Shown here one piece after another: positions 3,001 to 60,161 of a stretch of DNA of 64,000 nt (position 1 is the first letter of the stretch; each line of letters begins with the position of its first letter). The notes beneath the pieces are model-generated. The model was not told where the DNA came from, ran no database searches, and saw only the letters and a list, made by a program, of their open reading frames with translations. The stretch comes from Candidatus Uhrbacteria bacterium RIFOXYB12_FULL_58_10 (GTDB lineage: Bacteria; Patescibacteriota; Patescibacteriia; UBA9934; GWF2-40-263): positions 18-64,017 of the forward strand of contig CALRBH010000005.1 of NCBI GenBank assembly GCA_943354165.1, in the 5' to 3' direction. Position numbers and translations under genes: made by a program.

Positions 3001-5041
3001 CTTCCGTGGCGTAAAGTCCTTCTTGCGTATTTGCGGCGGAACGAACGGCAAAAGTTTGAATCGCCGCATCATGCGCAGGAACGTTGTATGTGGCGCCCGT
3101 TGGCAGGAACGAGAAGGTGTCGTCTGTGGTGACAAGTGTTCCCTTTCCATCAAAGTATTTATTCACGCGGTACCAACGGCAACCGGCGTTCCCCTGGTTA
3201 CAGACGGAAAAATCTACCGTGTTCGCGAGGAAGGCAGTGCGCTCGTTATCGATGGTGTTGGTATAGGCAAGACAGCTTGCAAACTGTTCCGGACACTCTT
3301 CCCCGCGGAAGCGCCAGATGTTCTTTTCGCGCACGCAGTAGCCGAACCCGCCTGTACAGTTCCCCTTGCTGTCTTCCGAGAGACAGGAAAGCGTATCTGC
3401 ACAGTATGTGTTGCGCGCCCCTGAGGCTGAAGAAATCGGCACCTCGCCGTTCACAAAGGACTTACACTGTGTTTCCGGATATTTTAAAATCCAGTTTGGA
3501 TCGATGAGGTGGCAAAACGGATTCCCTCCTCCGCAATCGTTATACGAATCAACGATCTCTTTGAGGGTCTTAGGCGGATCAAACGACGCGTTGATGGTAG
3601 CAGCAATCTCCCAACCGACAGGAATAATGCGGGCCTTGCGCAGTTTCACAAGGTTGCCATAACAGAAGGCTGACGTATAACAGAACGGATCCTGATTTTT
3701 GGCTTTGTTCGTTGCTGGAAAAAGAGGCCAACTACCGTTCAATAAGCCTTCCTCTCCAGACATAGCATCGCGCACCGTGAGCGCGATCCCGGCGTCTGAG
3801 CGTGTGACGGCCGCGGCGAAATTCGGATCCATCACGCAGTTGTTGATGTTACGCGGGATGGTTCCTCCGGCCGGACACACCACAAACTCCGCCAGCAGGT
3901 TGTAGTTGGAGACGGAGATGGGGTTTGCTGTGATGAGCGACCTAAATTGCTCCTGGGCGGCTTCTCGGCCACCATTTGAAAGTGCTTCGATGTCAAACGG
4001 ATTGTCTCCCCCCACAAGCGGAGCCATCCCCTTTGAGATGCGGTCGATGGTGGTGGAGAGCAAGGTGTTCGTAAACGTAGACGCGACGTGTCCGAACAAT
4101 CCCCAGATGAGGTCGGCGTTATTGATGGCGTTCAGGATTTGGAGGTCTGCCGGCTTATCAGGATCTTCCAGTTGTGACTTTTTCACCTCAGCCTCAAGAA
4201 ACGAAGCTGGTGTCTGTACCTTGCCCGTAACCGTGTCTACAACATTCTTATACCCATTGTTAGCCAACTGTTCTTGAATATTGATCTGGCGTTTCTGGTT
4301 AGCCTGTTCCTGCGTCAAGAACGAGATGCTTATGGAAGCGGAAAGTTCGTTCCGTCCCGGAGACAATCCCGCTGAAAATCCTTTTAAAACCGCGCCGACC
4401 GGGTCCTGTGCCGTCGCCGATGTTGTCGCGATAAAACTCTCCCAGTTTTTTATGGTGGAATCAAAATCACATTTTGGCTTTCCTGGCTTGTACGCCTGCG
4501 CGATACCCAACTGAAGGGCGAGCTTAAACTCCGGCAACACGGGAGAACAGATATCAAACTTGATATCGAGTCCAGTGCTGATGACTTCCCCAAGCTGACC
4601 GATCGTCTCTCCGGCCACGTCCTTTCCAAACTTTGTCCAGGCATCCTCTGCGGTATCCGCGTACAAAAGAGGTGTTTGTCCCTTCCCTCCGGAAGCGATA
4701 AACACGGCGGATTCGTACGCAAGTCGATCCGTGACGAAGGTCAAGATGTTCAAAAGCCCGGTGACCAAGGCGATCTGCATGAGAGGGCTTACTACCAAAG
4801 TATCCACAGCGTGTGTGGCCGCTGCTGCACCTTTTGGTGGGTTTGGTGCCACCCCAGGAATCGCTCCACTCGCCGTTTCTAATGTAGCTTCAAGACCCCC
4901 GGAAACCGGGCTTGAAGGACCAGATGCTGCCAACGTCGGCCTCGGCATCAACAAAGCCGTAACCAGACCTCCCCCCACAAGCCCAACGACGGCGAGGGAA
5001 AGGAGAAATGCAGAAATGGACTGGCGGACCTTGAGCGACAT
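1..5041 (-). CDS. Giant cysteine-rich secreted/cell-surface protein, partial (C-terminus beyond window start). It has an N-terminal signal/TM segment, many Cys pairs and two CBM4_9-like beta-sandwich modules with GFE..GW motifs. More than 1,680 aa fall within the window.
   Basis: The reverse-complement frame starting at the ATG at 5041..5039 reads without any stop down to position 1. No long ORF is reported in the track for 1..5040, which fits a stop-less ORF running off the edge. The N-terminus MSLKVRQSISAFLLSLAVVGLVGG is hydrophobic, and the codon bias matches neighbouring genes. Confidence 0.75.
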   Translation of the reverse strand, partial: MSLKVRQSISAFLLSLAVVGLVGGGLVTALLMPRPTLAASGPSSPVSGGLEATLETASGAIPGVAPNPPKGAAAATHAVDTLVVSPLMQIALVTGLLNILTFVTDRLAYESAVFIASGGKGQTPLLYADTAEDAWTKFGKDVAGETIGQLGEVISTGLDIKFDICSPVLPEFKLALQLGIAQAYKPGKPKCDFDSTIKNWESFIATTSATAQDPVGAVLKGFSAGLSPGRNELSASISISFLTQEQANQKRQINIQEQLANNGYKNVVDTVTGKVQTPASFLEAEVKKSQLEDPDKPADLQILNAINNADLIWGLFGHVASTFTNTLLSTTIDRISKGMAPLVGGDNPFDIEALSNGGREAAQEQFRSLITANPISVSNYNLLAEFVVCPAGGTIPRNINNCVMDPNFAAAVTRSDAGIALTVRDAMSGEEGLLNGSWPLFPATNKAKNQDPFCYTSAFCYGNLVKLRKARIIPVGWEIAATINASFDPPKTLKEIVDSYNDCGGGNPFCHLIDPNWILKYPETQCKSFVNGEVPISSASGARNTYCADTLSCLSEDSKGNCTGGFGYCVREKNIWRFRGEECPEQFASCLAYTNTIDNERTAFLANTVDFSVCNQGNAGCRWYRVNKYFDGKGTLVTTDDTFSFLPTGATYNVPAHDAAIQTFAVRSAANTQEGLYATEDRVYFNKDVKQCDGSQVGCGELTRAAGVTLNQVRNPGFEAPNEEGGLLAGWTFSGLPAPSVDPAEGGNAVDLTIDTISQKDIELSAGSFYTFSFESKGATVPTASIVLSTLAGGSAAANIAGTNARGCTITGNTVSVTPATANASAYVRSSCTFTTGATSLLAEIRIAGTSLVDAIQLERGESATDFANGYSDANAQSVALKVPPAYLNCKGLPTDPAQCDEYAEVCSAQEVGCELYTPEDGDPSVPAVASAVDQCPGECVGYAAFKQEPTKYEGSKFPLFFIPAKAQSCDAQFVGCDAFTNLNPGAGGESVEHYTDLRACVLPDPAQASTVATAAADRTQAPFFTWEGTDTSGFQLRSFTLLKSNLTTNSVIDYTQPANNAVQPSIPAPANDASAGAAPCTSSSMLSETVRTCNDSIAVLAADSSCNEHTDIFTNPDCREFYDGAGAIHYRLFSKTVTVDVGCNQYRKTAAPTSADCNSTGGFSLPNGDCRYLGLPSESVQCPAAASGCRSYTGGAGRNATTVINESFESGTFAPWVGAGGATPTVSNESVSAGGHSMRVTGFGNVSYGDFEGKLVAGKTFVLEFWAKGTGPLAATLIPSNGSGIASSFGPAVTLTQGWLPYSVGPLDASLIPEITDTAILRFAHASGSDDIFLDNIVLKQVEDNITLIKGSFVVPASCDQTPTGAASPQFFLGCEGYTDRASQSHSFYQFTSLCSEQKVGCEAFYDERNSTSPYGETHNARCVGPVGACRYLSNPNVCTIQPGKTFCLFDFDGAIRTIRNVTEENAAQLGPETRVIPNDVPVFLVNNGAGQCSPEAVGCEEVGVPVFNLDKSRVTKFDSEFLIIDPLIYGDEVFKNTLCSHEALFCDEWKSTKDGNFYFKNPLGQNCEYKTDVSISSRRFFGWFRKGTNEPCEYVDVNNDLAFTLGIDTPRARGGNEFLMPTNGDAAYRGFVGLCAQQFDQCTEFRDPTDRTTEHRVGLPYFFRDTESLEKNTGAIEC

Positions 5042-5700: not shown

Positions 5701-5780
5701 AGTTAGTAGTAAGTAGATAGTAGTTAGTAGAGCTGACGGTGGAAACCCTACTACCTACTTACTACTATCTACTAACTAAG
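5701..5780. repeat. TAGTAG-family stop-codon-rich hairpin, copy T1 (arms of TTAGTAG/TAGATAG units, 17-nt loop)
   Basis: The left arm agttagtagtaagtagatagtagttagtag pairs with the right arm ctactacctacttactactatctactaactaag. Related copies occur at 8250..8326 and 34899..34997, with a half copy at 46400..46432. Confidence 0.85.
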
Positions 5781-6535
5781 ATCCCATGCAACCGCTTCCA
5801 CTGCTCGATCGAGACAATCTCCGCGCGGACGCGGGCGTCCAATCCGACGGCTTCTATGGCCGATTTTACGATGGCAGGTTCTCCATACCCTGCAGCCGTG
5901 AGGTTTCCGTGCATTTGTTTACGAGGATGGGAAAAACCAGCCTTTGCAAGCTTAATAATCGCTTCCATATCCCCGCCAGGAGGATATAAATCGAACCGCA
6001 CGATGGCTGAATCAACTTTTGGCACTGGCCGAAACACTTCGCGGGAGACGTTGAACACTTTTTTCACCTTTGCGTAGACCTGACAGGCCACCGCGAGCAG
6101 GCTCATGTTCGGCGACTCGGCGGTAATCCGGTCCGCCACTTCCCTCTGCACCATGAGGGTCATGCTCGTTGGGTACGGCTCGGTGGTCAGAAAACATTCG
6201 ATGATGGGAGAGGTGATGTTGTACGGAATGTTCGCGACGAGTTTGTATGGAGCGACCGGAAGAAGCGAGGCTGGCGTATTCAGCGCATCGCCTTCAATGA
6301 GGTTCAGCTTGTCGCCAAAGATTTCTTTGAGCGGTTCGATAAGGTCGTGGTCGGCTTCAATGGCGGTCACGATCGCTCCGGCTTCGATGAGCGCGTCAGT
6401 GAGGACGCCGGTGCCAGGGCCGATCTCAAGAACTCGGTCGCCGGGTTTTACCTCGGCGGCTTTGATGATGCGTTTCACGATGTTTTGGTCGGCGAGGAAG
6501 TTTTGACCAAAGGATTTCTTGGCGCGGGGAAGCAT
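5765..6535 (-). CDS. ksgA: 16S rRNA (adenine1518-N6/adenine1519-N6)-dimethyltransferase RsmA/KsgA
   Basis: The protein reads MLPRAKKSFGQNFLADQNIVKRII...LEIGPGTGVLTDAL...NIPYNITSP. The start is the internal ATG at 6535; the longer ORF up to 7204 is a frame artefact overlapping tsaC. The stop TAG lies within the T1 hairpin arm. Confidence 0.9.
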   Translation of the reverse strand: MLPRAKKSFGQNFLADQNIVKRIIKAAEVKPGDRVLEIGPGTGVLTDALIEAGAIVTAIEADHDLIEPLKEIFGDKLNLIEGDALNTPASLLPVAPYKLVANIPYNITSPIIECFLTTEPYPTSMTLMVQREVADRITAESPNMSLLAVACQVYAKVKKVFNVSREVFRPVPKVDSAIVRFDLYPPGGDMEAIIKLAKAGFSHPRKQMHGNLTAAGYGEPAIVKSAIEAVGLDARVRAEIVSIEQWKRLHGILVSR

Positions 6536-8247: not shown

Positions 8248-8249
8248 GA

Positions 8250-8326
8250 GTTAGTAGTAAGTAGATAGTAGTTAGTAGGGTTGAATGACGGAAAACTACT
8301 ATCTACTTACTACTATCTACTATCTA
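8250..8326. repeat. TAGTAG-family hairpin, copy T2
   Basis: The arm gttagtagtaagtagatagtagttagtag pairs with ctactatctacttactactatctactatcta. It lies between the epimerase start and the prfB stop and provides the prfB TAG stop. Confidence 0.85.
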
Positions 8327-9772: not shown

Positions 9773-11742
<1,970 letters not shown>

Positions 11743-11748
11743 AAGATA

Positions 11749-11864
11749 GGGTTGTAAGGGTTGTAATGGACTGTTAGGGGCGAAAGGTCGCTAGGAAAGC
11801 ACGGACGGTCGGGAAAACCCCTTACCACCCTTACTGCCCTTACAGCCCTTACAGCCCTTACCGC
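11749..11864. repeat. GTAAGGG-family hairpin (G family) upstream of groES
   Basis: The forward arm gggttgtaagggttgtaatggactgttagggg is complemented by ccccttaccacccttactgcccttacagcccttacagcccttacc. Confidence 0.8.
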
Positions 11865-11884
11865 CCACGGAATGTCGCTAGATA

Positions 11885-11911: not shown

Positions 11912-13253
11912 CGGCGATATTTTTATCGGTTTTTATTGACTTGTCAAGACAAATCCCACACACAATCGCTGCGAGGGCGAGCCCGCTCCAGAGGCTCCAG
12001 AGGTAATGATCAAACAGGGCAAGGACGATGAGGCAGGCGATCAACGAGGCGGCCATGATGCCGTCGCGCGTAAATAATCGAGGACGGAGCGAGCGCCACA
12101 GTTCCCTTCCCGCTAGGAGAAAGAAGAGGGAGGCGAGAAGACCGCCTTCGGCGAGGAACAGGAGGAAGGCGTTGTGGACTGGCTGGTAGGCGTAGGACGG
12201 GAATCCGGGGCGAAGTGCGGCGAGCTTCGAAGTGAATTGTGAGGTCCCGGTTCCAAGGATCGGACTCGACATGAACACCTCTGGAAATTGGGCGAGGGCG
12301 GCGTAGCGTTCTGCGATCGAACGTTCTTCCAGCCGCGCGGTCGGAATGGCGCGCGTAAGGACTTCCGTTCGGAAGACGATGAGAGTCAGGAGGATGGCGC
12401 AGCCGGCGATGCCGGCGACCGGAAGCGCGCGGCGTGGAAGTTCACGACGGGACCAGAGCAAGAGGATGCCGACGGTTCCGGTTCCAGCCGCCACCGCGAG
12501 CCAGGCGCTGCGGGAAAAGGTGAGGATCAGGGTCGCGGAAAAGATCGCGAGAGCTAAACGCGTCGCGGGCTGATGCCATGAACGGCAACCGCCCCTAACC
12601 CCTCCTTGGCGAAGGAGGGGAATCGCGCTTAGTTCCCAAATGCAAAGCAGGATACCAACTGCCAAATAGCCACCAAACACGTTTGGATGCGGGAATGAAC
12701 CATACGCACGCAGCGTGCGGATGCCTCCGGCGGATTCCACGACGGATGCGCCGAGTTCTGGCGCGTTGTGCGCGGAAAGGCCGAGCCAATGACTGGCGGG
12801 ACTATCGCCCATGAAGGTCTGAATTATCCCGAAGAGACTCACGGGCACGAGTCCGGCAATGAAGGCGTGGCGTGCCATCGAGACATCGGTTCGCTCATCG
12901 GTGATGAGGAGAGCGAGTGCCGCGGCCGCAGCAACATGGAAGAGATGCGAGAGGGCGAGGAGCGGATCTGCGCTCACGAATGAACTCGCGAGCAGGGCAA
13001 GAGCACAGAGTTTTGCCCAGCGGAAAAGTAGTTGGTAGGTGGTAGTTGGTAGTTGGGGTTTTCCGCGTGCAACAAGAAGAGCGAGTGCGAGGAGTTCGGT
13101 TGCGTACAACAGGGTTTTTCCGTACTCCCATCCCCCGCCATCAAGCGTTCTCTCCATCACGATCCACACCATCTGCCACGGCAACAGGAAAAGCAGCGCG
13201 TACAGGCCGTTGGTTACGAGGCGATCTTTGTTCATACGCCGTGAATTCGACAT
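11895..13253 (-). CDS. O-antigen ligase / O-antigen polymerase family membrane protein (Wzy_C domain)
   Basis: It is a multi-TM protein with the motif TFSRSAWLAVAAG characteristic of the WaaL/Wzy_C family. It contains an in-frame P-family hairpin at 12599..12620 encoding PLLRQGG. Confidence 0.7.
   Translation of the reverse strand: MSNSRRMNKDRLVTNGLYALLFLLPWQMVWIVMERTLDGGGWEYGKTLLYATELLALALLVARGKPQLPTTTYQLLFRWAKLCALALLASSFVSADPLLALSHLFHVAAAAALALLITDERTDVSMARHAFIAGLVPVSLFGIIQTFMGDSPASHWLGLSAHNAPELGASVVESAGGIRTLRAYGSFPHPNVFGGYLAVGILLCIWELSAIPLLRQGGVRGGCRSWHQPATRLALAIFSATLILTFSRSAWLAVAAGTGTVGILLLWSRRELPRRALPVAGIAGCAILLTLIVFRTEVLTRAIPTARLEERSIAERYAALAQFPEVFMSSPILGTGTSQFTSKLAALRPGFPSYAYQPVHNAFLLFLAEGGLLASLFFLLAGRELWRSLRPRLFTRDGIMAASLIACLIVLALFDHYLWSLWSGLALAAIVCGICLDKSIKTDKNIAASNLN
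12599..12620. repeat. P-family hairpin (cccctccttggcgaaggagggg) in-frame within the O-antigen ligase CDS
   Basis: A perfect 9-bp stem with a 4-nt loop. It is the same core as at 7438 and 25231. Confidence 0.75.
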
Positions 13254-14884: not shown

Positions 14885-16174
14885 TTACGTGGTCTCAGGG
14901 GTAGAAGGTGTTGAATCGCTCGGCTGCGCCTCGCTTGTAGAAGTTGTAGAAAGTGGAGTCGTTTCTACATTTTCTACACCTTCTACACTTTCTACAATCT
15001 GGTCCGGCTTCCCTTCCTCAGCAATATTGATCTTCCAACCAGAGAGCTTGGCAGCGAGGCGGACGTTTTGACCTCCGCGTCCAATGGCGAGCGAGAGCTG
15101 ATCGGCATTCACCTTCACGGAAGCGGAACGATCGGATTCTTGCACACTCACGGCCAGGACTTTTGCTGGAGCAAGAGCATTGGCAATAAACTTCTCTGGA
15201 ATGTCGTTCCATTCGATGATATCCACCTTTTCTCCACCCAACTCTGCAATGATGGTCTGAATGCGGGTTCCGCGCTGACCAATACAAGCACCGATTGGAT
15301 CAATGGAATCATCCTTCGCAGACACGGACACCTTGGAGCGTGATCCTGCTTCGCGAGCGAGAGCTTTGATCTCCACGGTTCCTTCGGACACTTCTGGAAT
15401 TTCCATTTCAAAGAGCTTGCGGACTACTTCCTCAGAGGCGCGGGAGAGGAGAATTTCCGGACCACGCGTGGTGAGGGCAACCTGGCGGACGTACACCTTG
15501 ATGCGGTCGCCGGTGGCGTAACGCTCCGTTGGAATCTGGTCCTCCGGGCGAATGATGCCGGTGGTGCGGCCAATGTCGACAAGAACCACGCGACCCTCGC
15601 GGCGCTGCACAGTGCCGTTGAGCATCTTGCCCTCATGTTCCTTGAACTCGTTGAACACGATTTCGCGTTCGGCCTCGCGCAGCTTCTGCATGATGACCTG
15701 TTTGGCGGTCATTGCCGCCATGCGTCCGAATTCGCCTTCCATCGGCATTTCTGTGCGGAGCACGTCGCCGATGCTTGCAGACATCTTAAGCACGCTCGCC
15801 GCAGAAAGCATGAGCTCCGTCTTTGGATTGAAGGATGGAAGATCGTCTTCGTCGATCGTTACGGACGTAACGCTTTCCCCGCGATCACGGGCCTGTTTGA
15901 TTTCGTTTGCGAGCTTCTCCACGCGTGCTTTGCGCTCCAGGTCCGCCGCCTCAAGCGCTTCCGGAGTAATGTCGGCAACGACCATCTTTACATCAAACAC
16001 ACGGGTGGCGCCCGTTTCCGGATCGAACTCCACTTCAATGTTCATGTTCTTATCGCCGAAGTCCTTACGGTAGGCGGCGGCGAGGGCGGCTTCGATGGCG
16101 GAAAGGACTGCTTCATATGCGAGCCCTTTTTCCTCGCAAATCTGACGAATAGCTTGTTCAATGGGTGATGACAT
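14885..16174 (-). CDS. nusA: Transcription termination/antitermination factor NusA, with a low-complexity Val/Glu/Thr/Ser-rich C-terminal tail
   Basis: The N-terminal domain, S1 domain and two KH domains (GACIGQRGTRIQ, IGRGGQNVRLAAKLSGW) are recognisable. The C-terminal tail is encoded by TTCTACA/TGTAGAA repeats at 14935..14997. Confidence 0.92.
   Translation of the reverse strand: MSSPIEQAIRQICEEKGLAYEAVLSAIEAALAAAYRKDFGDKNMNIEVEFDPETGATRVFDVKMVVADITPEALEAADLERKARVEKLANEIKQARDRGESVTSVTIDEDDLPSFNPKTELMLSAASVLKMSASIGDVLRTEMPMEGEFGRMAAMTAKQVIMQKLREAEREIVFNEFKEHEGKMLNGTVQRREGRVVLVDIGRTTGIIRPEDQIPTERYATGDRIKVYVRQVALTTRGPEILLSRASEEVVRKLFEMEIPEVSEGTVEIKALAREAGSRSKVSVSAKDDSIDPIGACIGQRGTRIQTIIAELGGEKVDIIEWNDIPEKFIANALAPAKVLAVSVQESDRSASVKVNADQLSLAIGRGGQNVRLAAKLSGWKINIAEEGKPDQIVESVEGVENVETTPLSTTSTSEAQPSDSTPSTPETT
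14935..14997. repeat. TTCTACA heptamer tandem and inverted repeats inside the nusA 3' coding end
   Basis: TGTAGAA x2 is followed by TTCTACA x4. The segment is hairpin-capable and encodes VESVEGVENVETT. Confidence 0.65.
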
Positions 16175-17298: not shown

Positions 17299-17375
17299 TG
17301 GTGGACGCTGGGGGATTCGAACCCTCGACCTACTCGGTGTAAACGAGCCGCTCTAACCAGCTGAGCTAAGCGTCC
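17299..17375 (-). tRNA. tRNA-Val (anticodon TAC), CCA encoded
   Basis: The reverse complement GGACGCTTAGCTCAGCTGGTTAGAGCGGCTCGTTTACACCGAGTAGGTCGAGGGTTCGAATCCCCCAGCGTCCACCA forms a cloverleaf with a 7-bp acceptor stem, the anticodon loop TTTACAC and a TTCGAAT T-loop. There is one A:C mismatch in the T-stem. Confidence 0.9.
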
Positions 17376-17630
17376 ATAATTTTCAACTAACCAGGTCCGA
17401 CGCCCTGATGGGGTACGGACCCCCGACCGCATCAGCGCGTCGGGGCTGAGCTAAGCGTCCATAATTTTCAACTAACCAGGTCCGACGCCCTGATGGGGTA
17501 CGGACCCCCGACCGCATCAGCGCGTCGGGGCTGAGCTAAGCGTCCATAATTTTCAACTAACCAGGTCCGACGCCCTGATGGGGTACGGACCCCCGACCGC
17601 ATCAGCGCGTCGGGGCTGAGCTAAGCGTCC
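17376..17630. repeat. Three perfect tandem 85-bp units immediately 5' of tRNA-Val(TAC). In tRNA orientation each unit is the tRNA 5' 15 nt (GGACGCTTAGCTCAG), then a 51-nt GC-rich hairpin insert, then TGGTTAG and 11 nt.
   Basis: The period is 85 (units start at 17376, 17461 and 17546), and every unit ends with gctgagctaagcgtcc, identical to tRNA positions 1-16. The insert has inverted repeats (CCGACGC/GCGTCGG and CTGATG/CATCAG). A related single element lies 5' of tRNA-Ile at 34528..34620. Confidence 0.9.
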
Positions 17631-17640
17631 ATAATTGCTA

Positions 17641-18163: not shown

Positions 18164-18250
18164 GCGGACGTGGCGGAATTGGTATACGCACTAGCTTGAG
18201 GGGCTAGCGCTCGCAAGGGCTTGAGGGTTCGAGTCCCTCCGTCCGCACCA
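18164..18250 (+). tRNA. tRNA-Leu (anticodon GAG), class II with long variable arm, CCA encoded
   Basis: GCGGACGTGGCGGAATTGGTATACGCACTAGCTTGAGGGGCTAGCGCTCGCAAGGGCTTGAGGGTTCGAGTCCCTCCGTCCGCACCA; the anticodon loop is TTGAGGG. Confidence 0.9.
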
Positions 18251-18251
18251 C

Positions 18252-18288
18252 AAAACGCTCCACCGTAAGGTAGAGCGTTTTGTCTTTC
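18252..18288 (+). terminator. Rho-independent terminator after tRNA-Leu
   Basis: The hairpin aaaacgctc..gagcgtttt is followed by gtctttcc. Confidence 0.7.
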
Positions 18289-20814: not shown

Positions 20815-20935
20815 TAAACGACAAACAACAAATCCCAAACGACAAAGAAAGAGGGAAAAGAAGAAACAGCTAAACCTTTTACCCTTTTTTCGTTTTCCAT
20901 ATTTCTTTGTCGTTTGTCGTTTTTCGTTTCATCGT
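20815..20935. repeat. CGACAAA-family long hairpin (arms of about 35 nt)
   Basis: aaacgacaaacaacaaatcccaaacgacaaagaaagag pairs with tttctttgtcgtttgtcgtttttcgtttc. It lies between the histidine kinase start and the upstream gene stop. Confidence 0.75.
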
Positions 20936-22233: not shown

Positions 22234-23064
22234 ATGAAGCTCAATGAACCAAAGCATTTGCGCAACAGCCTGTCCCTGCGCATCGCGGTCGCTCTGTTCG
22301 CGGCCCATCTCGTTTGGTGGGGAGCATTAACACTCCTGAATGCGCCCGACGAAACCAAGGCCATTTGGGGAGCCTCATACCAGGTGCTCGCCCTCTGGGG
22401 AGGTGTCTGGGGACTCATCATCGCCCGGTCATGGGGCGGCATGAAGAGCGTCATGGGACGATCCGTCGGTGCGTTTGCCATCGGGTTGATTTTGCAGAAC
22501 TTCGGACAGAGCGTGTTCAGCTACTTCAACTTGTTCGCCCAGGTTGAAATGCCCTACCCTTCGCTCGCAGACCTTGGCTACTTCGGCAGCATCCCGTTCT
22601 ATATCTACGGCGCCATCATGCTCGGAAAGGCCTCTGGGGTGAGCATTTCCCTCAAGTCCGTCTCGAGCAAATTGCAGGCCGTTACCATTCCGGTCATCAT
22701 GCTGGGACTTTCCTACTTCTACTTCCTTCGGGGGTATGAGTTTAATTGGTCGGCACCGCTCCGAATGTTCCTCGATTTCGGCTATCCATTCGGTCAGGCC
22801 ATTTACGTATCGCTCGCCATGCTCGTCTACCTGCTGTCTACCAAGACTCTGGGGGGAATTATGAAAGACAAAGTGCTCCTGATCCTCGCCGCCCTCGTCG
22901 TCCAGTACCTCGCCGATTATAACTTCCTCTACCAAGCCGCCGCCGGGAGCTGGGCCGTCAGCGGATATGGCGATGTCATCTATCTCACGGCTTACTTCCT
23001 CATGGCATTCGGACTCATCCATCTTAAGACCGAATACATCCACGCCCGCCCCTCGGCCTCCTAA
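22234..23064 (+). CDS. Hypothetical polytopic membrane protein (about 8 TM)
   Basis: The 277-aa protein starts at the internal Met (the ORF opens at 22210) and lies 30 nt downstream of the DUF2156 gene. Confidence 0.55.
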   Translation: MKLNEPKHLRNSLSLRIAVALFAAHLVWWGALTLLNAPDETKAIWGASYQVLALWGGVWGLIIARSWGGMKSVMGRSVGAFAIGLILQNFGQSVFSYFNLFAQVEMPYPSLADLGYFGSIPFYIYGAIMLGKASGVSISLKSVSSKLQAVTIPVIMLGLSYFYFLRGYEFNWSAPLRMFLDFGYPFGQAIYVSLAMLVYLLSTKTLGGIMKDKVLLILAALVVQYLADYNFLYQAAAGSWAVSGYGDVIYLTAYFLMAFGLIHLKTEYIHARPSAS

Positions 23065-23068
23065 AAAA

Positions 23069-23104
23069 ATAGCCTCGCCAATATGGTGAGGCTATTTTGT
23101 TTTC
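23069..23104. terminator. Bidirectional rho-independent terminator
   Basis: The hairpin aatagcctc..gaggctatt is flanked by A-tracts and T-tracts on both sides. It lies between the convergent genes ending at 23064 and 23107. Confidence 0.7.
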
Positions 23105-25187: not shown

Positions 25188-25252
25188 AGGGCTGTAAGGG
25201 CGGTAAGGGTCGTAAGGGGCTGAATACGTTCCTCCCCTTCGCCAAGGGGAGG
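25188..25252. repeat. Composite intergenic spacer between argS and tyrS: GTAAGGG units followed by a P-family hairpin (cctcccc ttcgccaa ggggagg)
   Basis: gggctgtaagggcggtaagggtcgtaagggg is followed by cctccccttcgccaaggggagg. Confidence 0.75.
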
Positions 25253-29244: not shown

Positions 29245-29284
29245 GAGGTTTGGAAGGTTGGGGAGGTTCGGAAGGTTTGGAAGG
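29245..29284. repeat. W-family repeat just upstream of the valS start. If translated in the valS frame it would encode LPNLPNLPNL.
   Basis: gaggtttggaaggttggggaggttcggaaggtttggaagg. Confidence 0.8.
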
Positions 29285-29336
29285 ATGAGTTGAATCGGGT
29301 TTACTGTAGGGGAAATTGGGCTGGGGGGCAATATTG

Positions 29337-31253: not shown

Positions 31254-32603
31254 ATGAACGGAGGAGCCGAAGCCGTACGCGAAGCTCTTGGGCGCGATCA
31301 TGCGCTTGGGTTTGCGTTTCAGCTCATGAAGGATTGCTCCGATGCGGAGATATTCCTCGTTGGAGGGTTCGTGCGCGATGCCCTGCTTGGCCATCCGTCC
31401 AAGGATGCGGACTTTGTCGTACGCGGTATCAGCCAGGAAAAGCTCGAGGCTTGGCTCAGTGAGTATGGCGAGGTCGTGTTCGTCGGCCGCGCGTTTGGGG
31501 TCTACAAGTTCAAGCCATCGATCCATCCAGAACACGACGAAATCGACATTGCCCTGCCACGTACAGAGGTGCCGACTCAGGACAGCCTTGGCGGGTACCG
31601 GGATTTTTCGATGAAGTCCGATGCGATGCTTTCCATCGAGGACGATTTGGCTCGCCGGGACTTTACGATCAATGCCATCGCATACAACTTGAAGGACAAC
31701 ACGCTCGTTGATCCGTTTGGCGGACTCAAGGATCTCGAGGCGAAGATCTTACGCACCGTAGGCGAACCGAAGGATCGATTCGCCGAGGATCTTTCCCGTG
31801 TCCTTCGAGGGATCCGGTTCAGCGCCACCTTGGATTTCACGATCGAGGATGCAACCTGGTGGGCGATCAAGGACGCGGCCTCGCATATCAATCGCACGCG
31901 GGAGGTCGATGACAAAACCGTGTTCGTGGTTCCGCGCGAAACCGTGGGAACCGAGCTCGTGAAGGCGATCCATGCGAACCCGCACGCGTCTCTCAAGCAT
32001 CTGCACGACGCCGGGCTCATGCGTGAACTGTTTCCAGAGCTTGAGCACCTGGTGGTTCACTCCTCCTACCTCGACGTCCTCTCAAAGATGCACGCTGATG
32101 CCCCACCGGACGCCGTGTTCGCCGTTTTGCTGCGCGGCATTCCTACGGAACGCGTCGGCGCCCTGCTTCACCAGAGCGGACTCGACGCCCTGCCCCGCAC
32201 ACACCCGCTGCGCCTGCATGCGAACGACATCACTTGGATCGTCGCCACGCTCCAGGACGGACGCCCGGATCCAACGGCGCTCGTCGCCTGCGACTTCGAA
32301 CGCTTCTTCATGAACGAGCGTGCCCCCGCCTACCTCGCCGCCCTCACTGCACAAGGCCACGAGGACGAAGCGCGCCGCGCACGATTGCGAGCTGCAGAAA
32401 TCCGCGCGCGCTGGTGGGCCACGGACGATGAAAAGATCCCGCCGCTGGTCTCAGGAAACGACGCGACGAATCTAGGCCTGGCCCCTGGCCCCGCCGTTCG
32501 TCTGCTCCTCGATGCGATGCGCTCTGCGCAGCTCGAAGGCCAGGTGAAAAATCGCACGGCGGCGCTACACATGATGGAACAATTGATAAAGGAGATGGAA
32601 TAA
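31254..32603 (+). CDS. cca: CCA-adding tRNA nucleotidyltransferase (Pol-beta head domain type, no HD domain)
   Basis: The head motif is GGFVRDALLG..DADFVV, followed by RRDFTINAIAY and a C-terminal tRNA-binding body. Confidence 0.8.
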   Translation: MNGGAEAVREALGRDHALGFAFQLMKDCSDAEIFLVGGFVRDALLGHPSKDADFVVRGISQEKLEAWLSEYGEVVFVGRAFGVYKFKPSIHPEHDEIDIALPRTEVPTQDSLGGYRDFSMKSDAMLSIEDDLARRDFTINAIAYNLKDNTLVDPFGGLKDLEAKILRTVGEPKDRFAEDLSRVLRGIRFSATLDFTIEDATWWAIKDAASHINRTREVDDKTVFVVPRETVGTELVKAIHANPHASLKHLHDAGLMRELFPELEHLVVHSSYLDVLSKMHADAPPDAVFAVLLRGIPTERVGALLHQSGLDALPRTHPLRLHANDITWIVATLQDGRPDPTALVACDFERFFMNERAPAYLAALTAQGHEDEARRARLRAAEIRARWWATDDEKIPPLVSGNDATNLGLAPGPAVRLLLDAMRSAQLEGQVKNRTAALHMMEQLIKEME

Positions 32604-32605
32604 CA

Positions 32606-32634
32606 AAACCCGGTCACTGAGTGACCGGGTTTTG
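32606..32634. terminator. Bidirectional terminator hairpin
   Basis: aaaacccggtcac-tgag-tgaccgggtttt. Confidence 0.7.
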
Positions 32635-32635
32635 T

Positions 32636-32712
32636 GGTGGGCGGTACAAGGCTCGAACTTGTGACCTTCACAATGTCAATGTGACGCTCTAACCAACTGA
32701 GCTAACCGCCCA
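32636..32712 (-). tRNA. tRNA-Val (anticodon GAC), CCA encoded
   Basis: The reverse complement is GGGCGGTTAGCTCAGTTGGTTAGAGCGTCACATTGACATTGTGAAGGTCACAAGTTCGAGCCTTGTACCGCCCACCA. Confidence 0.9.
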
Positions 32713-34621: not shown

Positions 34622-34698
34622 GGGTCCGTAGCTCAGTTGGTTAGAGCGCCGAGCTTATACCTCGGTGGTCGATGGTTCGAGTCCATCCGGACCCACCA
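34622..34698 (+). tRNA. tRNA-Ile (anticodon TAT), an unusual UAU anticodon, CCA encoded
   Basis: GGGTCCGTAGCTCAGTTGGTTAGAGCGCCGAGCTTATACCTCGGTGGTCGATGGTTCGAGTCCATCCGGACCCACCA has a 7-bp acceptor stem, the anticodon stem CCGAG/CTCGG and the loop CTTATAC. Confidence 0.8.
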
Positions 34699-34709
34699 AT
34701 CAAATATCT

Positions 34710-34889
34710 ATGCCATTTCTGCTTCTCGGAATAGTCAGCCTGGTCGCTGGACTCATCTTCCATCGGCTCGCAAAGAAAAATCATGACCACGACGGCGAGC
34801 TCGGTTCTACCGGACTCATCCTCGGCGGGATCCTTTTGATCGTCTTTTTTGGACTGTATTACCGGGTCGTGACGCTGTTTGGTAACTAA
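34710..34889 (+). CDS. Hypothetical small membrane protein (59 aa, 2 TM)
   Basis: MPFLLLGIVSLVAGLIFHRL...ILGGILLIVFFGLYY lies between tRNA-Ile and a TAGTAG hairpin. Confidence 0.35.
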   Translation: MPFLLLGIVSLVAGLIFHRLAKKNHDHDGELGSTGLILGGILLIVFFGLYYRVVTLFGN

Positions 34890-34898
34890 AGAACAAGA

Positions 34899-34997
34899 GT
34901 TAGTAGATAGTAGTAAGTAGTTAGTAGATAGTAGTAAGTAGTTAGTAGATTTTCCGTCGCACATCCCTACTAACTACTATCTACTAACTACTAACTC
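34899..34997. repeat. TAGTAG-family hairpin, copy T3 (left arm internally duplicated)
   Basis: gttagtagatagtagtaagtagttagtagatagtagtaagtagttagtagat, a loop, then tactaactactatctactaactactaactca. Confidence 0.85.
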
Positions 34998-36416: not shown

Positions 36417-36812
36417 ATGTCCGACGCAAAAGTAGTAAACCCGAACGACTCGGTCAAAGTCGCTTCCCCTAAGCAGGGCGAAGTCACCGTGATCCGCGTA
36501 GAAGACCTCAAGCCAGGCATGACGGTCCGCGTCCACGAGAAAATCTCGGACGTGTCCGCCAAGGGCGAAGCCCGTGAACGCGTGCAGATCTATGAGGGCT
36601 TGATCCTCGGACTGCGCGGCGCCGGCCTCTCCCGCACCATGACGGTGCGCAAGAACGCCAACGGCTGGGGCGTCCACAAGATCTACCCAGTTCGCTCCCC
36701 AGTAGTTTCAAAGATCGAACTCGTGAAGCAGGCCAAGGTTCGCCGCGCGAAACTTTCCTACATCATCGACCAGAAAAAGCCGTTCAAGCGCAAGCTCAAG
36801 GAACGCAGCTAA
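36417..36812 (+). CDS. rplS: 50S ribosomal protein L19
   Basis: PGMTVRVHEKI..RVQIYEGLILGLRGAGLSRTMTVRK..NGWGVHKIYPVRSPVV..RRAKLSY aligns with bacterial bL19. Confidence 0.85.
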   Translation: MSDAKVVNPNDSVKVASPKQGEVTVIRVEDLKPGMTVRVHEKISDVSAKGEARERVQIYEGLILGLRGAGLSRTMTVRKNANGWGVHKIYPVRSPVVSKIELVKQAKVRRAKLSYIIDQKKPFKRKLKERS

Positions 36813-36815
36813 AAC

Positions 36816-36850
36816 AAAAACCCCGGCCTTACGGCTGGGGTTTTTGTTTT
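36816..36850. terminator. Bidirectional rho-independent terminator
   Basis: aaaaaccccggcc-ttac-ggctggggtttttgtttt. Confidence 0.7.
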
Positions 36851-36855
36851 AGCTC

Positions 36856-46345: not shown

Positions 46346-46442
46346 TTCGACTCGCTGTTGCTCGCTCATGGTCTTTGACCATCGGAACGAATTTTTCAAA
46401 CTACTAACTACTTACTACAAACTACTAACTGTATTTTTTGCT

Positions 46443-49407: not shown

Positions 49408-49925
49408 GCGGTCCTGGGACGGCCGGACGGCTACGGTGGATCGCAAGATTCGCTGAGGAAAGTCCGAACACCCGTGGCATCGCAAGGTGCTACGCCAAGG
49501 AACGTCGCTAACGGCGACCGGGTATACCTGTGGGATGTAGAGGCGTTGGAGCAATTCACGCTTTTGGATCTCATAATAAGCCTAGGGAAAGTCTCCCCTG
49601 AAGATAGGACGGGGAGTGCGAAACCAGATCGAAAGGTCTGGGGACGTAGCCACAGAGACAATACTGACGGCCTTCGCGCAAGCCAGGCAGCTGCCTGGCA
49701 AGCATGGCCGCTCAAGGTGAAAAGTGAGGTGATGTGTCGCAAGACGCTGCACCTCTCCCTGCATGGTGACATGCAGGCGATGCAAACCCGTTCCGGTGCA
49801 AGAGCAAGTTTGGTAGCTCGCACGAGCCATGCAGCAATGTATGGACCAGAGAGATGGCCGTCTCCTGCGCACCTAACCCGTGCGGAGAAGACAAAATTCG
49901 GCTTACAGGCCGCTCCCAGGACAGC
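49408..49925 (+). ncRNA. rnpB: RNase P RNA (bacterial type A)
   Basis: The P4 strands GAGGAAAGTCCG and ACAAAATTCGGCTTACAGG are conserved, as are ACAGAGACAATAC..GGCC and AAGGTGAAAAGTG, which correspond to E. coli M1 CAACAGAGAGCAAACC and GGTAAGGGTGAAAGGGTG. P1 pairs GTCCTGGGA with TCCCAGGAC. A terminator follows. Confidence 0.85.
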
Positions 49926-49957
49926 TAAAACCCTCGCTTACCGCGGGGGTTTTTGCT
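49926..49957 (+). terminator. Rho-independent terminator after rnpB
   Basis: aaaaccctcgc-ttac-cgcgggggttttt. Confidence 0.65.
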
Positions 49958-49971
49958 ACCATACGCCTACT

Positions 49972-51393: not shown

Positions 51394-51395
51394 AA

Positions 51396-51487
51396 GGGCT
51401 GTAAGGATGGTAAGGGCGGTAATGGACTGTAAGGGCGAAAGATCGAACCAACCCCTTACCATCCTTACAACCCTTACAGCCCTCACC
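51396..51487. repeat. GTAAGGG-family hairpin (G family) between wbaP and the GT4 gene
   Basis: gggctgtaaggatggtaagggcggtaatggactgtaagggcg pairs with ccccttaccatccttacaacccttacagccctcacc. Confidence 0.8.
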
Positions 51488-51501
51488 ACCCCACGATCCT
51501 C

Positions 51502-54297: not shown

Positions 54298-54346
54298 AAC
54301 CCCAACCTCCCCAACCTTCCGAACTTCCCAAACCTCCCCAACCCCT
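54298..54346. repeat. W-family repeat (reverse orientation), intergenic upstream of the GT4 gene
   Basis: caaccccaacctccccaaccttccgaacttcccaaacctccccaacccc. Confidence 0.8.
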
Positions 54347-60048: not shown

Positions 60049-60054
60049 AAGAAT

Positions 60055-60084
60055 AAAACGACTCCCTCTATGGGAGTCGTTTTA
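60055..60084. terminator. Bidirectional terminator hairpin
   Basis: aaaacgactccc-tcta-tgggagtcgtttt. Confidence 0.7.
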
Positions 60085-60161
60085 TGGTGCACCTGACTCG
60101 ATTCGAACGAGTGACCTCTTCCTTCGGAGGGAAGCGCTCTATCCAGCTGAGCTACAGGTGC
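60085..60161 (-). tRNA. tRNA-Arg (anticodon CCG), CCA encoded
   Basis: The reverse complement is GCACCTGTAGCTCAGCTGGATAGAGCGCTTCCCTCCGAAGGAAGAGGTCACTCGTTCGAATCGAGTCAGGTGCACCA. Confidence 0.9.

Follow-up and report, generated by a model that had tools for sequence, protein, structure and literature searches.

A stretch of 64,000 nucleotides from Candidatus Uhrbacteria bacterium RIFOXYB12_FULL_58_10 (hereafter the window) carries, at positions 5701-5780, a palindromic element saturated with TAG triplets, located between ksgA and the gene that follows it. The question is what such an element does at the end of a gene and how it came to be there. A sequence-only reading had described three full copies and one half copy, and had taken them for a combined transcription terminator and all-frame translational stop. 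All four sites were confirmed, and the hairpins were found both by reading the sequence and by an inverted-repeat search of the window. Their bounds are now as follows.

5701-5780, minus strand: E1, TAGTAG hairpin separating the ksgA stop from the following gene, which starts at an ATG (5671)
8249-8326, minus strand: E2, TAGTAG hairpin occupying the entire prfB-to-epimerase spacer
34897-34997, plus strand: E3, TAGTAG hairpin between a 59-aa gene and a pseudouridine synthase gene (ATG at 35007)
46399-46432, plus strand: solitary CTACT-type G-free array of 4.6 units, without an AGTAG partner arm

The unit in all four places is the heptamer AGTAG+WW (W = A or T). The AGTAG core is invariant in each unit of all copies, and differences occur only at the two spacer positions. 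A search with TAGTAGNTAGTAG, allowing at most one mismatch, gave 23 matches in the window compared to 0.01 expected, all of them within the four sites. Every arm was resolved by Tandem Repeats Finder as a period of 7 with 4.0-7.3 copies. The arms are 25-34 nt long with 29-38% GC, the stems 22-34 nt and the loops 17-18 nt. On the plus strand, E1 consists of an AGTAG arm (5701-5730), a loop of 17 nt (5731-5747), and a CTACT arm (5748-5779). The arms of E2 span 8249-8278 and 8294-8326, with 17 nt from the last AGTAG to the first CTACT, and fold into a 22-bp perfect stem. The loop of E3 is 18 nt. The internal arm duplication described in E3 is present, in the 5' arm only, but it is an exact repeat of 21 nt, i.e., three units (Tandem Repeats Finder: period 21, 2.5 copies, 100% match), and not of 22 nt. 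This duplication is evidence of unit slippage and agrees with the proposal that the element is still evolving. The solitary array lies 54 nt past a tRNA-Leu gene and 10 nt ahead of the RNase J start (ATG at 46443).

Predicted folding energies of the hairpins lie between -32.8 and -45.8 kcal/mol (z-scores between -3.7 and -5.9 relative to shuffled sequences); the RNA folds of E1 (in mRNA sense), E2, and E3 have energies of -41.3, -32.8, and -40.5 kcal/mol, respectively. E1, E2, and E3 are homologous copies: their alignment covers the arms, a stretch of the loop (TTTTCCGTC), and the terminal bases CTACTAACTC, the order of the spacer dinucleotides is common to all three, and they are oriented alike relative to transcription. 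A pattern search of the window with the loop motif as written gave 2 hits compared to 1.5 expected, which is not significant. An assembly artefact was rejected because contigs from independent assemblies (L177, L122, and L169) match copies in the window identically. Logan contig L177 contains an identical E1 and breaks within its 3' arm, as expected for a repeat. At the gathering score, Rfam covariance models gave no hit to the hairpins, and the hits in the window were six tRNAs and the RNase P RNA; BLAST of E3 against plasmid and phage records gave no match. A CRISPR identity was considered and rejected. An integron attC site was also rejected, because GTTAGTA and TACTAAC do not fit the GTTRRRY / RYYYAAC core, the flanks are syntenic housekeeping genes, and no integrase is encoded in the window.

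Each 7-nt unit of the arms contains two stop codons, and on either strand, starting from either edge, all three frames meet a stop within 18-22 nt, as had been read from the sequence. The gene ksgA (5765-6535, minus strand) takes its last four codons and its stop from E1: L-V-S-R-TAG corresponds to 5779-5765, with the TAG at 5765-5767. KsgA has a C-terminus of normal length, of which the last four residues come from element sequence. The TAG of prfB (8324-8326) is the outermost triplet of E2. Both donated stops had been recognized before. E3 donates none, since the 59-aa gene in front of it ends on its own TAA (34887-34889), 7 nt ahead of the element, so that the placement at gene 3' ends with donation of the stop codon applies to two of the three copies. 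Moreover, placement purely at gene ends does not describe these elements, which adjoin the next start codon as tightly as the preceding stop. The hairpins end 2-30 nt from the next start in all three copies; after E2, the called epimerase ATG is at 8247-8245 and the homologue-aligned ATG at 8238-8236.

E1 and E2 lie within the conserved operon RF2-epimerase-Sua5-KsgA-x. The gene order NusA-YidC-x-Wzy-GroES-GroEL-MamF-RF2-epimerase-Sua5-KsgA-x-giant protein is kept in relatives. The RF2|epimerase gap is -8, 2, and 6 nt in three relatives and 76 nt here, which is essentially the element. The gap between KsgA and the next gene is 7 and 16 nt in two of the three relatives and 93 nt here, again essentially the element. 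In the third relative (L166), this gap is 193 nt and is occupied by a different palindromic element (165-180 nt). By this comparison of gene junctions, the TAGTAG hairpins are insertions relative to the relatives at both places. With regard to MITE features, the element is an inverted repeat throughout, the three junctions show no evident duplication, and the nearest relatives, at ~60% protein identity, provide no empty site. No IS element was found within the 64-kb window, and the Pfam results for its called genes include no transposase, no RAYT (REP-associated tyrosine transposase), and no integrase.

The TAGTAG family is one of at least four families of hairpins and arrays with 7- or 9-nt units in the window. 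The others are listed below; where no strand is given, none was assigned.

11748-11866: 9-nt-unit hairpin (GTAAGGG+NN / CCCTTAC+NN), -59 kcal/mol, identical in the independent contig L122
51394-51491: second copy of the GTAAGGG-unit hairpin, -44.6 kcal/mol, identical in L169
20816-20929: 7-nt-unit hairpin (AAACGAC / TTTGTCG), found by inverted-repeat and tandem-repeat searches
14935-14997, minus strand: 9-nt-unit hairpin (TGTAGAA+NN), in frame in the low-complexity C-terminal tail of NusA
56122-56207, plus strand: 9-nt-unit hairpin (GTTNGGGAW / AACCTNCCN), in frame in a DUF4012 protein gene (55483-58188)
11423-11448, minus strand: solitary 9-nt-unit array, sense strand CCCTTAC, directly 5' of the GroEL ATG (11410)
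25188-25218, minus strand: solitary 9-nt-unit array, sense strand CCCTTAC, directly 5' of an ATG at 25178
29246-29298, minus strand: solitary 9-nt-unit array, sense strand of TCCGAACCT type, directly 5' of the ValRS ATG (29238)
54300-54343, plus strand: solitary 9-nt-unit array (CCCCAACCT), 5' of an ATG at 54369

The hairpin at 11748-11866 lies between the stop of a Wzy_C-family gene (11895) and the GroES start (11742), and the 3' portion of its loop (GACGGTCGGGAAAACC) is similar to the TAGTAG loops. The second copy lies between a stop at 51391-51393 and a glycosyltransferase start at 51502, and the two GTAAGGG-family hairpins have ~25 nt of loop sequence in common. The AAACGAC hairpin occupies the spacer from the stop of a 90-aa gene (20939) to a histidine kinase start (20807). 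The hairpin in the NusA tail encodes ..VESVEGVENVETTPLSTTSTS.., and the array at 54300-54343 has an inverted partner array ~0.95 kb away (53305-53356). Intragenic copies in frame belong to 9-nt-unit families (NusA tail, DUF4012 protein), whereas the heptamer families lie between genes. In the window, the five solitary intergenic arrays all present the G-free strand as sense, just 5' of a start codon. An SD-like (Shine-Dalgarno) tetramer was found in only 5 of the 43 called genes of the window; the start-site leaders contain little G, and position -1 is T in 34 of the 43.

AGTAG-type hairpins were also found in many phyla and in metagenomes, where they usually fill the spacer from a stop to the next start. 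The core recurs in genomes of 38-72% GC, and the loop sequences vary between organisms. At one locus (L143), two copies have identical 35-nt loops and different flanks. For the count of positions in metagenomes, 35 non-redundant TAGTAG hairpins were used, 27 of them with both flanks called, and co-directional gene pairs flank 21 of these 27. The upstream ORF ends within 15 nt of the element in 20 of the 21 co-directional cases, and inside it in 13, so that the placement next to gene ends seen in the window is general. In unbiased counts, the AGTAG arm is the 5' arm in 21:0 cases (12:0 reference-genome loci, 6:0 viral contigs, and 3:0 among the window copies). In other phyla, solitary AGTAG arrays showed neither a sense/antisense bias nor a preference for the pyrimidine strand (22 vs 15). 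Among tandem-arm hairpins outside the window with units other than AGTAG, a general purine-first rule was not found: five were purine-first, two neutral, and two pyrimidine-first, the last two being real cases that remained after exclusion of N runs. Units containing a stop codon made up 35 of the 53 other heptamer arrays in the fetched loci (30.7 ± 2.6 expected), which is not significant. The two arms of a hairpin share spacer unit types in 55 of 116 comparisons, compared to 22 expected from a shuffle between hairpins; in a test for in-register co-variation, the order of the spacers was no better than after shuffling within hairpins (50).

Short tandem units, intergenic position, and folding place the TAGTAG elements beside several described repeats, of which the closest precedents are inverted pairs of GGGAATC heptamers in Xanthomonas, TAACTGA arrays in Beggiatoaceae, and the GTAG-tagged REPs. 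In Xanthomonas, 70-75 cases per genome consist of two convergent arrays able to form a stem-loop, and the repeat number of heptameric SSR arrays varies among relatives (Rehm et al. 2015, PMC4692102). Long SSR (LSSR) or STRR heptamer arrays are known from cyanobacteria (Mrazek 2007 and Mazel 1990, as cited in PMC4692102). The TAGTAG elements, too, are intergenic and have at least 3-4 head-to-tail 7-nt units in inverted array pairs, with arms 17-18 nt apart. Unlike GGGAATC, the TAGTAG unit is TAG-rich and AT-rich rather than G-rich and has no quadruplex potential. In contrast to the Xanthomonas and STRR arrays, the TAGTAG elements have a host in the candidate phyla radiation, share loop sequence between copies, fill stop-to-start spacers, and donate stop codons. 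Literature searches on STRR/heptanucleotide and small dispersed repeats returned nothing directly usable, and a comparison with intrastrand triplexes (PMC4666352) was not relevant.

TAACTGA direct repeats have a patchy phylogenetic distribution in Beggiatoaceae, Cyanobacteria, and Bacteroidetes. They contain stops in all frames and end a few nucleotides before start codons; some overlap the upstream stop, and an SD motif is usually absent between array and start (MacGregor 2015, PMC4679880). The TAGTAG elements share all of these features. They show the same behavior but are not the same family, as judged from the unit sequence and the inverted arrangement: TAACTGA arrays are direct, with only one indirect repeat reported (MacGregor 2015, PMC4679880), whereas TAGTAG elements are two inverted arrays forming a long hairpin, with insertion demonstrated against syntenic relatives. 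GTAG REPs and REPINs are small palindromes located mostly past coding regions, between unidirectional or convergent genes (PMC3733652, PMC3116915). The TAG with which an adjoining ORF stops often comes from their GTAG ends (Di Nocera et al. 2013, PMC3733652), and REP dimers, viewed as non-autonomous mobile DNA, fold as a single long hairpin (PMC3733652; Bertels & Rainey 2011, PMC3116915). With these stops and the TAACTGA arrays published, the design is less unusual than it had seemed. A REP unit is a short GC-rich palindrome of 20-40 bp with a single unpaired GTAG, whereas in TAGTAG elements the whole arm consists of tandem heptamers containing GTAG, repeated and paired in AT-rich arms of 25-34 nt. 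Rickettsia palindromic elements and MITE-like palindromes (Correia/NEMIS, ERIC) are insertions that fold on themselves and are tolerated in frame within genes or at the ends of genes; transcribed together with the gene, they form stem-loops in the mRNA, and their distribution is lineage-specific. The palindrome at the same ksgA junction in L166 is of this type. The arms of such elements are unique sequence, in contrast to the tandem short units of TAGTAG arms, and tolerance in frame is seen here only for the 9-nt-unit families, not for the TAGTAG family.

The terminator half of the earlier proposal, a factor-independent terminator or attenuator joined to an all-frame stop, is not supported, and we consider it very improbable. 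Like intrinsic terminators, the TAGTAG hairpins are stable stem-loops past a stop codon, with a purine-rich 5' side and a pyrimidine-rich 3' side. This polarity would resemble that of bidirectional intrinsic terminators, and the G-free, U/A/C-rich RNA of the 3' arm would give a relatively weak RNA:DNA hybrid. However, no T-tract follows the stem of any copy (the following sequences are CCGTCCTTTGG, CATGAGCC, and ACGCACCC), and a terminator consensus scan of the window reported none of the copies. An intrinsic terminator has a short GC-rich stem (about 5-14 bp) with a loop of 3-8 nt and lies at the end of a transcription unit. The TAGTAG hairpins have AT-rich stems two to four times longer and larger loops, and they lie inside operons. 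No promoter-like site was found between the hairpins and the next start codons, and a promoter inside the element was considered and rejected. Efficient termination would therefore silence the downstream genes, whose starts are so close. The five canonical terminator-like hairpins of the window (GC-rich stem, T-rich tail or A/T tracts) are all at convergent junctions, where termination is needed, whereas the six intergenic tandem-unit hairpins all separate co-directional genes (Fisher's exact test on 5/0 vs 0/6, p ~0.002, hand calculation). In our reading, the TAGTAG hairpin is not an efficient transcription terminator.

A possible but unlikely alternative is that the hairpin is a selected cis-regulatory module, a device for translational coupling or insulation in a genome without SD motifs. 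The ribosome would stop in the UAG-rich 5' arm and unwind the foot of the stem, exposing the G-free 3' arm and the start codon, so that the downstream cistron would be translated solely when the upstream one is; alternatively, RNase III could cut the 20-22-bp perfect stem and free a short pyrimidine-rich leader. All three copies and most metagenome examples have the stop in or at the 5' arm and the start just past the 3' arm. The overlapping or abutting junctions of the relatives imply a termination-reinitiation coupling that must be preserved. The G-poor leaders, the sense-strand G-free solitary arrays, and the arm polarity, which is a natural consequence of this model, also fit, and a post-transcriptional role has been put forward for TAACTGA arrays in the same position (MacGregor 2015, PMC4679880). 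Against this, the element is not required, since the same junctions work in relatives without any such element, and lineage-specific proliferation with several unrelated unit sequences looks mutational or selfish rather than designed. Because spacer complementarity in register is no better than after a within-hairpin shuffle, precise pairing of the arms is not under strong selection; a strand-specific G-U signature was looked for in the folds and not seen. It is quite improbable that the arms are instead the recognition pattern of an oligomeric protein, a 5-nt core every 7 nt with free 2-nt spacers, the hairpin being secondary. Restriction of all variation to the spacers, and the same core across genomes of widely different GC content, would favor such an array. 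HutP recognizes UAG-N4-UAG-N4-UAG, and omega repressor binds contiguous 7-bp heptads, direct or inverted; the reader could accordingly be a HutP-like protein recognizing UAG every 7 nt or an omega/ribbon-helix-helix-type DNA binder of heptad iterons. However, none of the genes in the 64-kb window encodes a candidate protein, the arrays are absent in relatives, and unrelated cores with the same architecture (GTAAGGG, AAACGAC, GGTTNGGRA) would need several different proteins.

Two further accounts concern the origin of the hairpins. That they are REPIN-like elements moved by a RAYT (Y1/HUH) transposase, with GTAG as recognition and cleavage tetranucleotide, we regard as highly improbable. GTAG is present in every TAGTAG unit and in three array families of the window (AGTAG, TGTAGAA, and GTAGTTG), and ORFs next to GTAG-REPs are reported to obtain TAG stops from their termini (PMC3733652). 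With GTAG outside, the strict polarity (5'-GTAG ... CTAC-3' on both strands) would mirror that of head-to-head GTAG-REP dimers; tail-to-tail dimers are also frequent, however, and REP biology alone does not predict 21:0. Moreover, the anatomy is not that of a REP, where the stem is short (5-13 bp) and GC-rich and the GTAG tag is unpaired; no Y1 transposase gene lies within the 64 kb, and other families of the same architecture have no GTAG. Least probable of all, and largely refuted already, is independent local growth, in which each hairpin was made in place from a stop-codon region by replication slippage and template switching, with no movement. Heptamer arrays are known slippage products that are over-represented intergenically (Mrazek 2007, as cited in PMC4692102 and PMC4679880), the 21-nt event in E3 shows slippage operating, and loops differ between organisms. 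Nevertheless, the spacer order, part of the loop, and the terminal bases are common to the three copies, and loops are also shared by the GTAAGGG-family pair and by the two L143 copies; shared loops cannot come from independent origins.

The explanation that we prefer, and to which we give about an even chance of being right, is a copy-and-paste, slippage-prone palindromic repeat element tolerated at gene junctions. A small non-coding palindrome with heptamer arms (AGTAG plus two A/T bases) would have multiplied in a Uhrbacteria-like genome, its length altered through unit slippage. Because the window encodes no transposase, RAYT, or integrase, the copying itself is something we infer. Copies would persist only where they are harmless, at the junction of two co-transcribed genes. 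A gene with an insertion in its last codons would obtain a new stop from the 5' arm, which closes every frame within about 20 nt; the stops of ksgA and prfB are examples of such replacement. Self-folding would keep the upstream stop and the downstream start adjacent at the foot of the stem, and the G-free arm beside the downstream start would suit the G-poor, SD-less leaders of this organism. In the mRNA, the element would form a stable intercistronic stem-loop, which probably ties downstream translation to ribosomes coming from the upstream gene and may act as a processing or stabilizing site. The unbiased solitary AGTAG arrays and the lack of enrichment of stop-containing units count against the tolerated-repeat explanation. 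The strict 5'-AGTAG polarity fits a tolerance filter only loosely, and the invariant core with variation at two positions only looks like a sequence-specific constraint, unexplained by pure selfish drift. Improbable, in our estimation, is the more far-reaching idea that the hairpins are either a polarity-constrained intercistronic module for ribosome hand-over in SD-less bacteria or the signature of a repeat-writing or mobilizing enzyme. In the former case, the 5' arm could be a UAG-rich stop and the G-free 3' arm a landing or leader sequence; the latter could account for the invariance of the core, for the hypervariable dinucleotide, and for a polarity in which the purine arm is always 5'.

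Heptamer repeat arrays are among the most over-represented and least understood bacterial repeats. The present case adds clear evidence of hairpin insertion into translationally coupled junctions, a stop-saturated unit that explains how insertions can take over the stop of the gene they enter, an arm polarity that is absolute in the unbiased counts, and an association with SD-less start sites with G-poor leaders. Together, these turn a vague repeat class into testable hypotheses on how operons are translated in SD-poor bacteria, among them the candidate phyla radiation, and on the spread of small palindromic repeats. In practical terms, essential genes owe their annotated C-termini and stop codons to these elements, and short-read assemblies break at them. 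If the enzyme reading were true, a repeat-writing or mobilizing enzyme would be at work in many phyla as well as in their phages.

The sequence-only reading had placed three hairpins and one half copy with TAGTAG-type units in the window, and the sequence at these places matches its description:

E1: AGTAG-type arm AGTTAGTAGTAAGTAGATAGTAGTTAGTAG at 5701-5730 (plus strand), 17-nt loop, CTACT-type arm at 5748-5779
E2: 8249-8326, layout as in E1
E3: 34897-34997, 5' arm longer than in E1 and E2
Solitary array: 46399-46432, CTACT-type arm only

The unit is a heptamer in which the core AGTAG is invariant and the remaining two bases vary between A and T (TT, TA, AT, or AA). When the window was scanned with TAGTAGNTAGTAG, allowing at most one mismatch, 23 matches were obtained (0.01 expected), all confined to E1, E2, E3, and the solitary array. 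The three hairpins align as a single element in the mRNA sense, in the same orientation relative to transcription, and have in common TAG(T/A)TAGTAGATAGTAGTAAGTAG-N-TAGTAG, a loop starting TTTTCC..GTC, and then CTACTAACTACTATCTACT(T/A)ACTACTAACTC. Loops in common next to unrelated flanks mean that the copies derive from one another. The arm duplication reported for E3 is present and exact, with a length of 21 nt (three units) instead of 22 nt. The RNA folds predicted for E1-E3 on either strand have energies of -33 to -46 kcal/mol, with z-scores of -3.7 to -5.9. E1 is identical in an independent Logan assembly contig, which terminates inside the E1 3' arm, a behavior typical of repeats.

The window is part of a 66-kb metagenome scaffold, and the closest matches of its KsgA are Candidatus Uhrbacteria/Patescibacteria proteins (~60% identity). 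E1, E2, and E3 all have co-directional genes on both sides. E1 has ksgA and a 208-aa gene as its neighbors and supplies the final four codons and the TAG of ksgA (5779-5765); the KsgA C-terminus has the usual length (compared with 17 homologues), and the next ATG follows 29 nt past the element. E2 separates prfB from an epimerase gene. Its outermost triplet is the TAG of prfB (8324-8326), the called epimerase ATG is located 1 nt past the other edge, and the ATG that matches homologues (MPYKRALV vs MKYKTALV) 10 nt past it. A 59-aa gene has its TAA 7 nt ahead of E3, and 9 nt separate the other end of E3 from the pseudouridine synthase ATG; the solitary array precedes the RNase J start by 10 nt. 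All three frames are shut within 18-22 nt of either edge of E1-E3 on both strands. The earlier observation that the ksgA and prfB stop codons are element sequence and that every frame is closed therefore holds. Just upstream of the 59-aa gene preceding E3 is a tRNA-Ile (34622-34698) with the anticodon TAT, not a common one in bacteria.

The gene order NusA-YidC-x-Wzy-GroES-GroEL-MamF-RF2-epimerase-Sua5-KsgA-x-giant protein is kept in three relatives, which allowed junction lengths to be compared.

Junction lengths in relatives and in the window
RF2/epimerase: relatives -8, 2, and 6 nt (e.g., gaaTAGctATGaag); window 76 nt
KsgA/next gene: two relatives 7 and 16 nt; window 93 nt
Wzy/GroES: two relatives 65-71 nt; window 152 nt

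The surplus length at all three junctions essentially equals the hairpin, and thus the hairpins are lineage-specific insertions at junctions with normally coupled translation. The third relative (L166, Uhrbacteria, ENA BUCK21-1 scaffold_15) has another, MITE-like palindromic element (GGGGTTGCGAATAACGAATTAGTTACTTATTACAC..., ~165-180 nt), which occurs in two copies in 20 kb (3589-3768 and 10783-10948). One copy is in the GroES-GroEL gap, and the other occupies the ksgA/next-gene junction, where E1 sits in the window. Evidently, gene junctions of these genomes accumulate self-folding insertions.

Further hairpins were found in the window:

11748-11866 and 51394-51491: GTAAGGG+NN hairpins, tandem-unit arms, ~25 nt of loop sequence in common
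20816-20929: AAACGAC hairpin, tandem-unit arms
14935-14997: TGTAGAA+NN hairpin, tandem-unit arms
56122-56207: GTTNGGGAW hairpin, tandem-unit arms
18245-18288, 23063-23101, 32600-32638, 36807-36854, and 60048-60090: terminator-like hairpins, canonical anatomy

Hairpins 11748 and 51394 are exactly reproduced in independent assemblies. The 3' part of the 11748 loop (GACGGTCGGGAAAACC) is similar to the TAGTAG loops (GACGGTGGAAACC), a hint of common ancestry across unit types. The two 9-nt-unit hairpins without in-frame stops (14935-14997 and 56122-56207) sit in frame within genes (NusA C-terminal tail, reading ..VESVEGVENVETTPLSTTSTS.., and DUF4012 protein) and recall Rickettsia palindromic elements.

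The window also has many solitary 7- and 9-nt arrays. Two arrays of one 9-nt unit family (AGGTTNGGR/CCCCAACCT) in inverted orientation, ~0.95 kb apart (53305-53356 and 54300-54343), enclose two small opposite-strand genes of 68 and 85 aa with no Pfam match, an arrangement that resembles cargo between inverted arrays. Another such pair (27900-27938/29246-29298) encloses the 5' portion of the ValRS gene, and a heptamer array of the GTAG-containing unit GTAGTTG (x4.1, 13028-13056) is located on the antisense strand inside a Wzy_C-family gene. At 17360-17636, an 85-nt unit repeated 3.3 times with 100% identity adjoins tRNA-Val (17299-17375, minus strand). Within each unit is a hairpin with a 23-bp stem, and the unit start overlaps the tRNA-Val 5' end sequence; the scaffold's ENA record is one copy short of the window, as an 85-nt offset shift shows. 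The match to bacterial class A RNase P RNA (49415-49922) spans 508 nt on a 367-position model, so this RNA has sizeable insertions; a mechanical ORF (49474-51393) that overlaps it has a spurious 5' end, the real gene start being 49972.

An SD-like tetramer, a motif for ribosome binding, precedes only 5 of the 43 called genes in the window, the 14 nt preceding the start codon are G-poor, and position -1 is T in 34/43. This is essentially a genome without Shine-Dalgarno motifs and with G-poor leaders. Solitary arrays in intergenic DNA precede GroEL, ValRS, RNase J, the gene at 54369, and the gene of a 569-aa protein; in all five, the strand without G is the sense strand, immediately ahead of the ATG. 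Given the arm polarity, a hairpin inserted either way round presents the stop-rich arm to incoming ribosomes and the G-free (CTACT-type) arm to the next start.

AGTAG-core arrays of at least 4 units occur at >120 loci among the matches listed for species-representative genomes, whose hosts include Cyanobacteria, Bacteroidota, Acidobacteriota, Planctomycetota, Chloroflexota, Patescibacteria, and others. The polarity test covered 12 + 6 + 3 cases among the matches listed: in 12/12 reference loci with a hairpin partner arm the AGTAG arm is 5', and viral contigs gave 6 loci for the forward and 0 for the reversed pattern, the other three cases being those of the window. A scan for A/T-spacer hairpins listed 40 metagenome contigs (38-72% GC) with unrelated loops. 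Among the non-redundant hairpins with both flanks called by crude ORF calls, 21/27 are flanked by co-directional genes. In 13 of these 21 the ORF upstream terminates within the element, and in 20 it does so within 15 nt of it; the first possible downstream start lies within 24 nt in 18, a distance skewed small by the ORF definition. In one foreign locus (L143), two copies have the same loop but differ in their flanks. Outside the window genome, the pyrimidine-strand-on-sense preference did not hold for solitary AGTAG arrays of other phyla, a purine-first rule could not be upheld for non-AGTAG tandem-arm hairpins, and stop-containing units were not significantly enriched among other heptamer arrays.

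The chance seems about even that the TAGTAG hairpins represent a palindromic, non-autonomous repeat that is copied, grows by slippage, and persists only where co-transcribed genes meet. Such a repeat would spread by copying, its tandem-heptamer arms would lengthen through slippage, and it would be harmless at these junctions by offering immediate stops in all frames, self-folding that holds the stop and the next start adjacent, and a G-free arm beside the start codon. Homology of the copies, their insertion compared with relatives, the donation of stop codons, predicted stability, position, and polarity are shown by the sequence; the copying mechanism and the selective filter are inferred, and any effect at the RNA level (coupling, processing, or stabilization) would be putative. 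Growth purely in place is hardly credible, as it is contradicted by the loops common to the copies. A selected translational-coupling module would fit the geometry, the absence of Shine-Dalgarno motifs, and the polarity, but is unlikely, since relatives do without the TAGTAG hairpin and the in-register pairing of the spacers is not kept.

The elements had also been read as transcription terminators combined with the all-frame stop. However, E1, E2, and E3 have no T-run on the 3' side, and the terminator scan of the window reports none of the TAGTAG copies. Instead, the terminator-like hairpins of canonical anatomy, whose short stems are GC-rich and bordered by A- and T-tracts, occupy convergent gene or tRNA junctions (5/5), whereas the intergenic tandem-unit-arm hairpins of the window occupy co-directional ones (6/6; 5/0 vs 0/6, Fisher's exact p ~0.002, calculated by hand). 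The terminator interpretation thus does not stand, and a terminator or attenuator is quite improbable. No promoter-like site was found between a TAGTAG hairpin and the next start codon. An array bound by a protein in heptad register would account for the invariant core and free spacers; this is improbable, as no candidate protein is encoded in the window and several proteins would be needed for several cores. Mobilization of the RAYT/REPIN type is suggested by the repeated GTAG and the GTAG-outside polarity, yet the hairpin anatomy differs from REP and no Y1 transposase was seen among the called genes of the 64-kb window, which makes it very doubtful.

Heptamer arrays are over-represented in intergenic DNA, and in each Xanthomonas genome 70-75 GGGAATC arrays form convergent inverted pairs, whose function is not known (PMC4692102). 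TAACTGA arrays of Beggiatoaceae, Cyanobacteria, and Bacteroidetes provide stops in all frames, end a few nt before start codons, and overlap upstream stops, usually without an SD motif (PMC4679880). ORFs next to GTAG-tagged REPs often take their TAG stop from a REP terminus, and head-to-head dimers predominate (PMC3733652). The TAGTAG hairpins unite known traits, namely inverted heptamer arrays, all-frame stops, and stop-to-next-start placement, and this combination occurs here in a genome of the candidate phyla radiation.
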